Of a DNA stretch of 1,712 bases, positions 1 to 1,712 are shown piece after piece (position 1 is the first letter of the stretch; each line of letters starts with the position of its first letter). Origin of the DNA: Escherichia coli (lineage in GTDB: Bacteria; Pseudomonadota; Gammaproteobacteria; Enterobacterales; Enterobacteriaceae). The stretch lies in assembly GCF_003334335.1 (NCBI RefSeq), contig NZ_QOWQ01000100.1; one strand, given 5' to 3'. The translations under genes were made by a program, and so were the position numbers. The notes under the pieces were generated by a model. It did not search any database. It saw nothing but the letters and a program-made list of their open reading frames with translations, and was not told the DNA's origin.

Positions 1-163
1 GCCTTGAGCGCTACCGGAAACCGTCTGGGGAGAACCCCAGACCCCCATCGCTGCAACACCGACGGTCTACGACCACCTACCAACCGCATGGCTGCCTGTT
101 CCGTGCAAATGGGCTTTGCAGGGGGCTGGCGCGGTTCCTGGCGACCTGAAAGCCCCTGGTTAG
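1..163. repeat. Long direct repeat, copy A (truncated by window start); matches 1550-1712 at 158/163 positions
   Basis: Base-by-base alignment of 1-163 with 1550-1712 (offset 1549) gives 5 mismatches, at 78, 97, 115, 127 and 147, all T here versus A in copy B. The repeat reaches the window edge, so its true left boundary is unknown. Confidence 0.95.
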
Positions 164-316
164 GGGTATCGGCGCGCTTGACCTCCTGAGAGCCTCTGTA
201 AGCGTTTTTCGCGCCTTCCATGCCCTGGCGGGCATCTAAAACCCGTTTCGTGCGTCTGAGAGCTTTTGAGCGCGTTTGAGGGGCTATCTGGCGACTCATC
301 CCCAAAAGAACAACAC

Positions 317-350
317 CGGGATCACCGACAACATGCGAGAGGTGATCCCG
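317..350. repeat. Hairpin: 10-bp perfect inverted repeat CGGGATCACC / GGTGATCCCG with 14-nt loop
   Basis: 317-326 is the exact reverse complement of 341-350; the loop is GACAACATGCGAGA (327-340). It is followed by a purine-rich stretch with three GGAAG repeats (394-398, 400-404, 411-415). Confidence 0.8.
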
Positions 351-472
351 CTCGCCGCAAGTCGATGACCGAGCGTAGCGAGCGAATCGACGAGGAAGCG
401 GAAGAGAACCGGAAGCCACATTGAGCACTTACGCACTGATGCGGGGTGTCGGGGTGAAGCCCTGACCAAGTG

Positions 473-510
473 GTAATCGTATCGGCGTGCATGCGCGGTT
501 ATACGATTAC
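473..510. repeat. Nested hairpin: 10-bp perfect inverted repeat GTAATCGTAT / ATACGATTAC with 18-nt spacer
   Basis: 473-482 is the exact reverse complement of 501-510. The spacer contains the GCATGC palindrome (489-494). Confidence 0.8.
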
Positions 511-555
511 ACATCCTGTCCCGATTTCTGAGGCGTTTTAACGGTGAACGGACGG

Positions 556-612
556 CAAAAACACGATGGAGCTGTTGAACGTGAAAACCACGAAATCTGG
601 CAAAAATCACGG
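556..612. repeat. Three imperfect direct repeats of an AAAA(N)CACG motif (iteron-like)
   Basis: CAAAAACACGA at 556-566, GAAAACCACGA at 583-593 and CAAAAATCACGG at 601-612, with starts spaced 27 and 18 bp, inside the core bounded by the 25-bp inverted repeats. Short and degenerate, so the iteron reading is tentative. Confidence 0.4.
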
Positions 613-698
613 CTGGCGAGGCTTGCATAGGAGTAAGCCAGTATACACTCCGCTATCGCTACGTGACTGGGTCAGGGCTTCACCCCGACACCCCCAAA

Positions 699-723
699 GG
701 GCGTTGCGTTGCACGCAACACCC
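699..723. other. Hairpin: stem GGGCGTTGCGT / ACGCAACACCC with 3-nt loop
   Basis: 699-709 pairs with 713-723 with one C/A mismatch (10 of 11 bp), loop TGC. It is not followed by a T-run on either strand, so it is not an obvious intrinsic terminator. It shares the GCAAC/GTTGC motif with the downstream operator region. Confidence 0.5.
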
Positions 724-759
724 TTGCCTAGAATAGATCTTTTACGCCGATTTGTAAGT

Positions 760-790
760 GGTTGTTTTTTTAGTGTGTTTTTTATTTACC
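760..790. other. AT/T-rich tract (candidate DNA-unwinding element adjacent to the operator/iteron cluster)
   Basis: gtggttgtttttttagtgtgttttttatttacc is a local T-rich island between the 699-723 hairpin and the 791-855 repeats. The functional role is inferred from typical plasmid origin layout. Confidence 0.35.
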
Positions 791-855
791 TGTCGCATCC
801 AGGGTGACACAACGTTGTCGCATCCTGGATGCGACAACACGCAACAAGGTGTTGC
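791..855. promoter_or_regulatory. Dyad-symmetric operator or iteron cluster upstream of the rep-like gene (candidate Rep binding site or double-strand origin)
   Basis: TGTCGCATCC occurs directly at 791-800 and 816-825 and inverted at 827-836. This forms a perfect 11-1-11 palindrome at 815-837 (TTGTCGCATCC-T-GGATGCGACAA) and a 13-bp inverted repeat 791-803/824-836. A 10-bp palindrome ACAACGTTGT lies at 809-818 and a 6-3-6 palindrome GCAACA-AGG-TGTTGC at 841-855. All verified by manual reverse-complementing. Confidence 0.6.
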
Positions 856-881
856 ACAGATGTGTCATGATGGCTTAGATT
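852..881 (+). promoter_or_regulatory. Candidate sigma70-type promoter for the rep-like gene (TTGCAC-N18-TAGATT)
   Basis: TTGCAC at 852-857 is 5/6 to the -35 consensus and TAGATT at 876-881 is 4/6 to the -10 consensus, with 18-bp spacing. The -35 overlaps the 841-855 palindrome, suggesting operator-promoter overlap. Hexamer matching only; alternatives exist (for example TTGAAC at 881-886 without a good -10). Confidence 0.3.
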
Positions 882-910
882 TGAACCAACGTTAGTGCAT
901 GGGATTTTCA

Positions 911-915
911 GAGGG
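911..915 (+). promoter_or_regulatory. Shine-Dalgarno sequence (GAGGG) for the 924-1400 CDS
   Basis: GAGGG sits 8 nt upstream of the ATG at 924, within an A-rich leader. Confidence 0.6.
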
Positions 916-923
916 AAAAAATC

Positions 924-1400
924 ATGTTTATTGATTCAGAAAAACGACTGAAACAACTTTCAGATGAGGCAAAGAAAAACACCGAGGATCTCGAAGAAGC
1001 AAAGAAAAATTCAAGGTTTACACAGGTATCCCCAAAAGGTTGGGAACGTGTTCGAGAGCTGCTGAAGGATAGCCAAGGCATATCAGCACTGAAGCTGTAC
1101 TCATTTTTAGCGGAGCATATCGATCCTACGTGTGGCGCTGTCGTTGCGGATCAGCAATTCCTAGCTGAAAAACTTGGAGTTAGCAGAAGCACAATTATTC
1201 GGTGGCTCAATTACTTAGAATCAAAAAATGCATTAGTTAGAATCCCCGTTGCTGGTAAGGTTTGTGCGTATGCCCTCGATCCACATGAAGTCTGGAAGGG
1301 ATACAACACTACGAAAAACCATGCAGCGTTTGTCACTAAAACACTGGTCAACAAAGACGGTGATATTCAGCGCCGAATCATGGCCATGTTTTCAAATTGA
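924..1400 (+). CDS. Putative plasmid replication initiation protein, RepL-like winged-helix/HTH family (158 aa)
   Basis: ATG at 924 is preceded by GAGGG (911-915) at 8-nt spacing. An in-frame TGA at 882-884 closes the frame upstream, so 924 is the first ATG; the stop is TGA 1398-1400. The protein has a charged N-terminal segment with an EAKKN internal repeat and a clear helix-turn-helix (about aa 77-98, QQFLAEKLGVSRSTIIRWLNYL). The overall pattern (LKLYSFL...FLAEKLGVSRSTIIRWLNYLESKNALVRIP...YALDPHEVWKG) resembles my recollection of RepL-type initiators of small plasmids. The family assignment is from memory, not a search. The gene is AT-richer (about 42% GC) than the upstream region. Confidence 0.8.
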   Translation: MFIDSEKRLKQLSDEAKKNTEDLEEAKKNSRFTQVSPKGWERVRELLKDSQGISALKLYSFLAEHIDPTCGAVVADQQFLAEKLGVSRSTIIRWLNYLESKNALVRIPVAGKVCAYALDPHEVWKGYNTTKNHAAFVTKTLVNKDGDIQRRIMAMFSN

Positions 1401-1549
1401 GCTAGCGGCAGGCGGACAATCAGGGGCTACGTGTTAACGTTCTGACCATGATTGTCTATCCTGCATTGCTCTTTTGCCGCCTCAAAATCCTTTGCGTGTT
1501 TTTGCTCCCCGTTCTCCAGAAAAAACCGAGCCGCCACGGTTCCGGCAGC

Positions 1550-1712
1550 GCCTTGAGCGCTACCGGAAACCGTCTGGGGAGAACCCCAGACCCCCATCGC
1601 TGCAACACCGACGGTCTACGACCACCAACCAACCGCATGGCTGCCAGTTCCGTGCAAATGGGCATTGCAGGGGGCAGGCGCGGTTCCTGGCGACCAGAAA
1701 GCCCCTGGTTAG
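1550..1712. repeat. Long direct repeat, copy B (truncated by window end); matches 1-163
   Basis: Same alignment as copy A; mismatches at 1627, 1646, 1664, 1676 and 1696 are all A here versus T in copy A. The repeat runs to the window end, so its true right boundary is unknown. Confidence 0.95.

Follow-up and report, generated by a model that had tools for sequence, protein, structure and literature searches.

A 1,549-bp unit with a 163-base terminal repeat: a probable linear write-out of the cryptic Escherichia coli plasmid pKL1

The terminal repeat of the window

The stretch of Escherichia coli DNA analysed here (1,712 nt from contig NZ_QOWQ01000100.1 of assembly GCF_003334335.1; referred to as the window) ends with an imperfect copy of its own beginning, and the question is whether this repetition belongs to the molecule or to the way in which it was written out. 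The initial annotation had aligned positions 1–163 and 1550–1712 at an offset of 1549 with five substitutions. The same direct repeat was reported by a repeat finder (spacing 1549, 97% identity), pairwise alignment of the copies was gapless with 158/163 identical positions, and both copies do run into the window edges, as had been observed. Chance cannot account for a 163-base match at 97% identity. In our reading, the window is very probably a linear write-out of pKL1, a long-known cryptic E. coli plasmid, i.e. of a 1,549-bp circle, with a 163-base redundancy at its end. The plasmid has already been described and the finding is an ordinary one; its main value is one of clean-up, the terminal repeat being something to be trimmed and not to be taken as biology. 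The window can be divided as follows:

1–1549: complete pKL1-type (Col(MG828)) plasmid unit, read as circular from whole-unit comparison with 1,549-bp circular records
1550–1626: exact 77-base re-reading of 1–77 beyond the closure of the circle (0 mismatches)
1627–1712: apparently error-bearing tail that re-reads 78–163 with five T-to-A changes (from the alignment; no matches elsewhere)

Identity and distribution of the unit

Whole-unit comparisons were made with three records, each 1,549 bp long and circular. The unit shows 6 differences over 1,549 bases from pKL1 itself (NC_002145.1, from E. coli KL4), namely 4 substitutions and 2 compensating single-base indels, 3 differences from CP056580.1 and only 1 from pEC21Z151-2K-2 (NZ_CP101209.1). 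Length, RepA, the repeats upstream of repA and the Col(MG828) typing (a replicon name that is a PlasmidFinder/MOB-suite label) are those of pKL1, whereas the redundant 163-base end is a property of the window and not part of the pKL1 molecule. Burian et al. (1999, 2003) are reportedly the authors to be named for pKL1 of E. coli KL4. The plasmids pG-EA11 and pG TY2482 of E. coli O104:H4 and pSF301-1 of Shigella flexneri, also of 1,549 bp, are allelic variants with no substantive difference, and the 163-base segment is 100% identical in four records of the O104:H4 pG/pSF301-1 group (NC_018660.1, NC_018663.1, NC_018652.1 and NC_019251.1). The pG-type plasmids of the O104:H4 outbreak strains were described as cryptic, with repA as the sole encoded gene, and a plasmid of ~1.5 kb is visible on gels of O104:H4 strains (PMC3486847). 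A sister variant frequent in ST131, pJJ1886_1 (NC_022661.1, 1,552 bp), has the same RepA accession and architecture as the unit, but its oriT-bearing half (1–720) is just ~90% identical.

At least 80% of the window was present in 343 PLSDB records and in 302 of 5,426 complete E. coli genomes, so that about 1 in 18 of the latter has the plasmid. It is nearly always found as a circle of 1,549 bp in which the 163-base segment is present once. The collection has 52,879 blocks in which the exact RepA sequence is indexed, and for 48,690 of these the longest carrying contig is shorter than 2 kb. The very small circular cryptic plasmid envisaged in the initial annotation can be given a name: it is pKL1-type, Col(MG828), with hundreds of finished 1,549-bp circular records. 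Within each of the 1,549-bp records listed the 163-base segment occupies a single place, at differing coordinates and on both strands; because one copy is found each time while coordinates and strands differ, the records are one molecule in different circular permutations. The point at which the window closes (1549/1) is internal to a reference record, and for this particular molecule a circular form of ~1.55 kb is suggested by the period of 1549 together with these records.

Origin of the terminal repeat

It had been argued that the five substitutions oppose a trivial circular-assembly overlap. This argument is not supported, as the left copy equals the references and the changes are confined to the right copy, of one type and private. 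The mismatches pair positions 78, 97, 115, 127 and 147 with 1627, 1646, 1664, 1676 and 1696. The left copy (1–163) agrees with the reference plasmids at every base (100%) and does not vary among 124 records. All 5 changes are T to A, each preceded by C (C-T to C-A; P = 6e-7 for the substitution type, P = 0.005–0.013 for the C context), and three further C-T sites in the tail (overlap bases 93, 139 and 157) are unaltered. Bases 1–77 of the overlap are exact, the first change falls on overlap base 78 and the window ends 16 bases beyond the last one. Dcm or Dam methylation was considered as a cause of the changes and rejected: none of the 5 sites belongs to a CCWGG or GATC motif, and the tail contains two CCTGG sites that show no change.

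The five A alleles were absent from 545 plasmid records and 544 E. coli records. Neither PLSDB nor the complete E. coli genomes contain any 28-base word of 1620–1712, and viral, metagenome and species-representative genome contigs, searched for exact matches to the right-copy variants, gave none. One E. coli record is at least 99% identical to the right copy; it is a partial match, because it was ranked below full-length matches of 96.9%, and it cannot span the variant-bearing tail since the 28-mers of the tail match no complete E. coli genome.

We propose that the assembler passed the closure point of the circle, which would have caused bases 1–163 to be written again at 1550–1712, and that the last 86 bases would be a dead-end path built from erroneous reads with five C-T to C-A miscalls; each plasmid in the cell would hold one copy of the segment. 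The overlap thus has the look of a dead-end path carrying errors that was attached to a circle already closed, with the changes presumably arising as errors. The C-T to C-A pattern may, as a conjecture, stem from signal lag in two-channel Illumina sequencing, in which C is read as red, T as green and A as both. The 77 exact bases probably correspond to a standard de Bruijn k, with the caveat that a tail at k = 77 needs a single read of at least 163 bases or else several reads sharing the same errors. For small plasmids, overlap between start and end and doubling are documented assembler behaviour (PMC6966772). As in that artefact of circular contigs, the start of the contig is duplicated at its end and the exact overlap equals a common k (77 in the window, 33 in NZ_CP069466.1); unlike a plain start–end overlap, the window carries an additional 86-base erroneous extension after the exact part. 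Untrimmed redundancy is also seen in other pKL1-type records, of 1,582 bp (perfect 33-base overlap), 1,640 bp (91-base duplication) and 3,096 bp (a dimer). An exact overlap of k-mer size followed by private changes of a single type that end at the contig end may serve as a diagnostic pattern.

Alternative explanations

The least improbable alternative, and still an unlikely one, is that the window derives from a plasmid multimer with genuine head-to-tail units, or from a long-read concatemer, with slight differences between adjacent units. The dimer record just mentioned and a two-copy tandem within a 62-kb plasmid contig give it some ground, and multimers may persist without a cer-like Xer site (no cer/dif-like site was found in the window at up to 3 mismatches). 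However, units of a multimer stem from one molecule and are expected to be identical. Here the differences all fall within the final 86 bases; they share one type and one sequence context, none is an indel, and no other record has them. Long-read errors are mostly indels, which counts against a concatemer of that kind.

Marginally less probable is the coexistence of two plasmid variants, with part of the minor one joined by the assembler to the end of the major one. Variation does exist in the pKL1-type family, with natural alleles at positions 682, 804, 826 and 883 as well as the 1,552-bp variants, but a real variant would give a closed bubble and extend past base 163, whereas the observed path stops 16 bases after the last change. 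Moreover, five private transversions of the same kind in 70 bases are unlike natural divergence when the remaining 1,549 bases show 1 difference, and none of these changes was found in any record searched. Nothing favours either a true multimer or a mixed population.

The initial annotation had also admitted a tandem genomic array or a chromosomal island bounded by direct repeats, which is effectively excluded as a description of this sequence. Integrated copies are known in chromosomes and large plasmids (see below), but these open the circle at 694–733, at IS26 or at other junctions, and a 1549/1 junction with a 163-base direct repeat beside it was seen in none of them; in addition, there are zero non-plasmid bases in the window and 557 of the 560 places matching the 163-base segment are on plasmids. 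This reading is given very little credence. One could also be led, by the A found in the right copy at all 5 differing positions, to a diversity-generating retroelement, with one copy as its template repeat and the other as its variable repeat. This notion is rejected as having next to no probability: there is no reverse transcriptase (1.5 kb is too small for one), the changes are exclusively A/T and do not cover the full range of bases, the copy that would have to vary is the same in 124 records, and both copies are the same locus of the circle, single-copy in the reference circles.

Replication gene and origin

One Rep-like gene with origin-like repeats had been noted in the unit, and both are there, the repeats just upstream of the gene:

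733–790: A+T-rich origin stretch with an IHF-like site (from the sequence itself)
791–838: putative RepA-box repeats, two adjoining palindromic units made of TGTCGCATCC (from repeats D2, I3 and I7 and the copies of the 10-mer)
924–1400, + strand: repA, predicted 158-aa winged-helix-type replication initiator and autorepressor (from identity to the pKL1 protein and Pfam)
697–725: stable hairpin with stems 697–701/721–725 and 703–709/713–719 and a C702/A720 mismatch
1401–1549: G+C-rich non-coding stretch (GC 0.57–0.64), continuing into 1–295

The only family-supported ORF of the unit is repA. Its translation is identical to the product of pKL1 913–1389 (WP_000469298.1), and a member of its cluster is named 'RepA plasmid replication protein' (UniProt O07102). 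Pfam searches identified HTH_36 (3.5e-8) and, weakly, RepL (0.004), and no HUH nuclease domain was found among these families, which speaks against a rolling-circle plasmid of the HUH Rep type; NCBIfam gave only HTH regulators below threshold, and comparison with PDB sequences gave HTH regulators at E > 0.2 and no informative relative. In the part of PMC3832669 that summarises the pKL1 work, RepA is assigned the roles of initiator and autorepressor. The function given to RepA here is taken from this secondary summary and from database names, and is best regarded as presumptive.

Exact copies of TGTCGCATCC (n = 3) start at 791 and 816 and, inverted, at 827; when up to 2 mismatches were allowed, the observed number of matches was reached in 3 of 200 shuffles. 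The second palindromic unit (814–838) is a perfect 12+12 palindrome centred on base 826. The same summary locates the oriV of pKL1 upstream of rep, with Rep binding sites, a perfect inverted repeat and an IHF box (PMC3832669). We infer that RepA binds at 791–838: it would recognise the palindromic TGTCGCATCC repeats adjoining the A+T-rich stretch, where it would start replication and repress its own gene, as is known for pKL1. The IHF-like site (755–767, − strand, 1 mismatch) is by itself no better than chance, and scans of the window for DnaA-box and IHF consensus sequences likewise gave nothing above chance. A sigma-70 promoter scan of the window returned no site at the scan threshold.

The hairpin at 697–725 has a DNA folding energy of −11.7 kcal/mol (z = −4.7), and 0 of 200 shuffles were as stable. 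The G+C-rich stretch contains a terminator-like hairpin on the − strand (1549–1530, followed by a T run); no Rfam match and no supported ORF were found in 1401–1549 or in 1–295.

Transfer origins

The unit further contains segments related to the transfer regions of larger plasmids:

348–406: homologue of ColE1 1309–1367 (83% over 60 bases), located in ColE1 between the RNA II region and bom
442–527, + strand: putative IncI1-type transfer origin, with an inverted repeat at 473–510 followed by ACATCCTGTCCCG (511–523)
443–471: left arm of the 29-base inverted repeat I1, whose partner is 666–694 (97% complementary, 194 bases apart)
634–693: putative ColE1-type transfer origin (bom/oriT) segment, from ColE1 homology

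Positions 634–693 align with ColE1 (NC_001371.1) 1462–1521 with 96.7% identity over 60 bases (E = 2e-23), a segment that sits upstream of ColE1 rop (1612–1803); the position of the nick is presumably as in ColE1. ColE1 1309–1367 is the primosome-assembly region. Its counterpart in the unit is overlapped by a 41-aa ORF (296–421, − strand) called 'replication protein' in some records, which is probably not a gene because NCBIfam assigns it to no family and different records give it different names; a 110-aa minus-strand ORF had no NCBIfam match either. Apart from these two shared segments, the unit differs from ColE1 in having no RNA I/RNA II replicon, rop or mob genes, and its replication would be RepA-dependent. 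In spite of the 'Col' label, a ColE1-type replicon was rejected: a search of all Rfam families on both strands at E up to 1 gave no match, and hence neither ColE1 RNA I nor another known RNA, and the ColE1 homology is limited to 348–406 and 634–693.

The second putative transfer origin resembles the intergenic DNA directly upstream of nikA-nikB in IncI/K plasmids (R64 type), with 83–92% identity over the 86 bases of 442–527, a stretch that takes in the inverted repeat as well as the invariant ACATCCTGTCCCG. In the alignment of the IncI1-type oriT region ATTACACATCCTGTCCCG is invariant, and 1,901 of 3,493 records matching this region are conjugative. The nick is assumed, after R64, to follow CATCCTG. 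IncI1/IncK systems have nikA and nikB, whereas the unit has neither, and because of this the IncI1-type site would work only with a helper plasmid.

Both arms of I1 align to the same ColE1 segment and form the outer portions of the two oriT-like sites, one arm for each site, so that these sites face each other. No relaxase ORF was found in the unit by ORF list and Pfam, and near-identical records without relaxase are typed as 'mobilizable' by MOB-suite. Transfer genes are absent from the plasmid, and homology suggests that relaxases of co-resident plasmids could move the plasmid via its two orphan oriTs, and these sites may help to explain its wide spread. Relaxase-less oriT plasmids are treated as a class in PMC10123127. 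A by-product of the analysis is therefore the description of a 1.5-kb replicon with two putative helper-dependent transfer origins that face each other.

Integrated copies

As a side observation, whole copies of the plasmid lacking 12–38 bases were found cleanly inserted at seven unrelated sites: in lacZ, uidR, slyB and ettA, upstream of cadC, upstream of clpS and in a colicin operon. The inserted replicon is missing CCCTTGCCTAGA (721–732, 12 bases) or slightly more. Twelve bases is a typical primer length. The left end is A733 in 6 of the 7 events (end sequence ATAGATCTTTTACG, preceded in the circle by CCTAGA), and the right end is A720 in 4 of the 7, across three plasmid variants (end sequence ACGCAACA, followed in the circle by CCCTT); A720 is the mismatch in the hairpin at 697–725. 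Neither duplication nor loss of target sequence was seen at the 4 sites that could be compared with the empty site in K-12, no target consensus or microhomology was apparent by eye at the seven sites, and the + strand of the plasmid runs parallel to fork movement in all six chromosomal events (6/6). When species-representative genomes and JGI metagenomes were searched for the left end with a base other than A in front of it, no further copies were found. The plasmid encodes no transposase or integrase, and a literature search on chromosomal integration of Col(MG828) plasmids found nothing relevant.

That pKL1-type plasmids also act as an insertion element is a tentative suggestion, which we consider rather doubtful. 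If it were true, A733 and A720 would be the start and stop of a defined single strand, either nick-defined or a primer-defined nascent strand, and an unrecognised route would place that strand into replicating DNA. Should the ends hold up, they would show where in the pKL1 origin a strand begins, and would point to an uncharacterised mode of chromosomal entry for a transposase-less plasmid. The hairpin at 697–725 together with the fixed 5′ boundary A733 of the integrated copies is suggestive of a nick site next to the hairpin, which may be regarded as a candidate.

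A known plasmid with a redundant end

The window is a known plasmid written out with an overlap that was left untrimmed and is partly erroneous. The initial annotation had described a 1549-bp unit followed by a 163-bp terminal overlap, with a single rep-like gene and origin-like repeats, and this description is accurate (repeat search, alignment, ORF and repeats at 791-838). A single long direct repeat was found in the window (1-163 and 1550-1712, spacing 1549); its two copies align without gaps and are identical at 158 of 163 positions. At each of the five mismatches (78, 97, 115, 127 and 147, corresponding to 1627, 1646, 1664, 1676 and 1696 in the right copy) a T of the left copy is replaced by A in the right, so that every change is C-T to C-A.

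The 163-base segment occurs once per 1,549-bp record, at coordinates that vary from record to record [1064-1226, 627-789, 392-554, 112-274, 259-421 (-) and 918-1080 (-)]. Since the segment shifts in position and is found on both strands, the 1,549-bp records are circular permutations of one molecule. The point at which the window closes (1549 to 1550) lies in the interior of one of the compared records (L001), where the sequence is continuous. This continuity, together with the single-copy state of the segment, argues that the second copy is not a molecular feature; on sequence evidence, the right copy is a redundancy of the linear print-out that would be absent from the real molecule.

The plasmid is very common and already has a name. 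The whole window was matched by 2,251 PLSDB records, in 343 of which a single place covered at least 80% of the query. Among the best matches listed, nearly all are exactly 1,549 bp, circular, Col(MG828) and 'mobilizable', and the hosts are E. coli with some Klebsiella and E. fergusonii; Shigella was added by further searches. After rotation, the unit (1-1549) shows 1 difference from pEC21Z151-2K-2, 3 from pRHBSTW-00366_3 and 6 from pKL1 (NC_002145.1; four substitutions and two single-base indels), whose protein WP_000469298.1 is identical to that encoded in the window. PMC12839544 cites pKL1 as a natural plasmid of 1,549 bp and refers to Burian et al. 1999 for it. A copy of the 163-base segment with 100% identity is present in the 1,549-bp plasmids of the E. 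coli O104:H4 strains 2011C-3493, 2009EL-2050 and 2009EL-2071 and in a 1,549-bp plasmid of Shigella flexneri. Ahmed et al. described the O104:H4 plasmid as a 1,549-bp cryptic element with repA as its only coding content, running at about 1.5 kb on gels (PMC3486847). At least 80% of the window is present in 302 of 5,426 complete E. coli genomes. In a public assembly collection, 52,879 blocks are indexed as holding exactly this RepA sequence, the longest RepA-carrying contig being shorter than 2 kb in 48,690 of them. As to novelty, the element is already known; what had been noticed was observed correctly but is ordinary.

The sole difference from the nearest record (T versus A, window 826) lies at the exact centre of GTTGTCGCATCC-N-GGATGCGACAAC, a perfect palindrome. 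Records with either allele are common, which would be expected of a palindrome able to flip or of a simple polymorphism.

Origin of the five substitutions

The five substitutions had been taken to argue against a trivial assembly overlap. They do not, being of one type, private and present in the right copy only, after 77 perfect bases. The left copy is identical to every fetched reference and is matched at 99% or more by 124 plasmid records, whereas all five changes are confined to the right copy, for which no full-length match above 96.9% was found among 545 plasmid and 544 E. coli records. No 28-base word of the tail (1620-1712, longest invariant stretch 19 bases) was found in PLSDB or in complete E. 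coli genomes, and the variant-bearing sequence had no exact match in viral, metagenome or species-representative genome contigs. Each of the five replaces T by A (P about 6e-7 if substitutions were uniform), and each is preceded by C (P = 0.005 to 0.013 for the T sites available). The right copy has no indels, overlap bases 1-77 are perfect and the sequence ends 16 bases past the last change; three other C-T sites in the tail are unchanged, both CCTGG Dcm sites among them.

A circle carrying one erroneous branch, assembled as a de Bruijn graph at k = 77, would give a loop whose start precedes the first wrong base by exactly 77 bases, with the dead-end branch appended after it. The layout of the window (1549 + 77 + 86 = 1712) would fit such a loop and branch. 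In two-channel Illumina chemistry, a lagging red C signal plus a green T signal is read as A; we conjecture that the C-T to C-A changes reflect a lagging-signal error of this kind.

A true plasmid multimer behind the second copy is possible in principle, as dimer records of the plasmid exist and no cer-like site was found in the window, but it leaves one-type, private, end-confined changes unexplained. A mixed population of plasmid variants in the sample should have produced a closed bubble and not a dead end: a real second allele would run back into the circle 77 bases past its last difference and not stop. There is no support for a chromosomal tandem array or island, since every base of the window is plasmid and the known integrated copies break the circle at other points. 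A DGR, considered because every mismatch has its A in the same copy, is rejected, as none of the features that define such an element is present.

Untrimmed overlaps of the kind preferred here have counterparts, redundant ends being frequent among records of the pKL1-type plasmid. Assemblers are known to double small plasmids and to leave start-end overlaps (PMC6966772).

Redundancy in other records of the plasmid
NZ_CP069466.1 (L003), 1,582 bp: perfect 33-base overlap
NZ_CP076691.1 (L004), 1,640 bp: 91-base duplication
NZ_CP159752.1 (L007), 3,096 bp: dimer

All three are public 'complete' records despite their dimer state or untrimmed redundancy. The 91-base duplication of the 1,640-bp record falls inside repA, and PLSDB gives no repA gene there.

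Replication and transfer regions

Features of the unit (window coordinates)
924-1400, + strand: repA, 158 aa, the sole convincing ORF
791-838: cluster of direct and inverted repeats directly upstream of repA (repeat search), with three exact TGTCGCATCC motifs giving two palindromic units (exact motif count)
733-790: A+T-rich stretch
755-767: IHF-like site, not significant on its own
634-693: ColE1-like bom/oriT segment, 96.7% identity to ColE1 1462-1521, upstream of rop
348-406: second ColE1-like segment, 83% identity to ColE1 1309-1367
442-527: IncI1-type oriT-like site, 83-92% identity to DNA directly upstream of nikA-nikB in IncI/K plasmids
296-421, - strand: 41-aa ORF at the second ColE1-like segment, without family support

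RepA matched HTH_36 (3.5e-8) and, weakly, RepL in a Pfam search that gave no HUH or other nuclease family; PDB and NCBIfam returned weak HTH regulator matches only. Passages of PMC3832669 citing Burian et al. 2003 place the pKL1 origin upstream of rep, with an IHF box, several Rep binding sites and a perfect inverted repeat, and state that RepA oligomerises. RepA bound to the 791-838 repeats would open the adjacent A+T-rich DNA, and at the same repeats it may also repress its own promoter. Despite the 'Col' label, a ColE1-type RNA I/RNA II replicon was ruled out, because there were zero Rfam family matches. A terminator-like hairpin with a T run (1520-1549, - strand) lies exactly at the closure point of the window; it would halt a leftward transcript before the 3' end of repA, and we know of no transcript running leftward towards that end.

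The window and the IncI/K plasmids have conserved the block ATTACACATCCTGTCCCG as well as an inverted repeat (473-510). The IncI1-type and ColE1-type oriT-like sites point at each other, have a 29-base inverted repeat in common (443-471/666-694) and together make up about a tenth of the 1.5-kb plasmid. Plasmids with an oriT and no relaxase form a class mobilised by helper plasmids (PMC10123127); lacking a relaxase gene and carrying two oriT-like sites, this plasmid belongs by sequence to that class, and its transfer is predicted. The 41-aa ORF, called 'replication protein' or 'hypothetical protein' depending on the record, is probably spurious, an artefact of annotation; a small ORF of similar kind is called 'replication initiation protein' in the ColE1 record. 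The remaining third of the plasmid (1401-1549 plus 1-295) is rich in G+C and without recognised function (GC profile, Rfam).

Integrated copies

Contigs encoding the exact RepA were looked up, and whole plasmid copies were found inside chromosomes and large plasmids. On a 129-kb multiresistance plasmid (L008, NZ_JBUZKL010000002.1, 3689-5245) the unit is flanked by two identical IS26 copies in direct orientation. The 8-bp duplication there, GAAAAAAT (window 915-922), comes between repA and its ribosome-binding site. The whole arrangement is a classical IS26 cointegrate. A segment of equal size (1,557 bp) is present in NZ_AP040930.1 (H83, 52950-54506). Seven independent IS-free insertions are more unusual.

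IS-free insertions (ends in window coordinates)
lacZ, two assemblies (L012, L014): left end A733, right end 716
uidR (L013): left end A733, right end A720
slyB (L015): left end A733, right end A720
ettA, non-E. coli genome (L018): left end A733, right end 694
13 bases upstream of cadC (L033): left end A733, right end A720
upstream of clpS (L011): left end 728, right end 695
colicin operon, IncFII contig (L037): left end A733 (1-base ambiguity), right end A720

On the left, six of the seven have their plasmid end at A733; on the right, four end at A720 and the others at 716 or 694/695. A720, the mismatched position of a stable hairpin (697-725, fold), is the right end in three plasmid variants, the 1,552-bp pJJ1886_1 type included. 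Compared with K-12, zero target bases were gained or lost at the lacZ, slyB, uidR and cadC sites. The plasmid + strand is co-directional with fork movement in 6/6 chromosomal events (P about 0.03), a count that assumes K-12 gene order together with positions for oriC and the terminus. Adding CCCTTGCCTAGA to the inserted element gives the free plasmid. The 5' end is fixed and the 3' end varies slightly, which points to a single strand of defined extent; it could be set by a primer, 12 bases being a typical primer length, or by a nick. The literature search found no paper on IS-free integration of this plasmid, and scans of two contig collections yielded no further IS-free integrated examples. 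This integration pattern is the only item possibly worth separate follow-up.

About two tandem copies of a 1,552-bp variant were seen on an IncFII microcin B17 plasmid contig (JAEGHL010000024.1, L019/L020; L019 2484-5591), where the circle is broken at window 409-414, with 6 bases at both ends and no adjacent IS. Partial or rearranged copies adjoin ISL3/IS3-type and IS21-type elements in CP050205.1 (L016) and CDDJSU010000009.1 (L017), with different break points (827/143 and 1458/1463, respectively).
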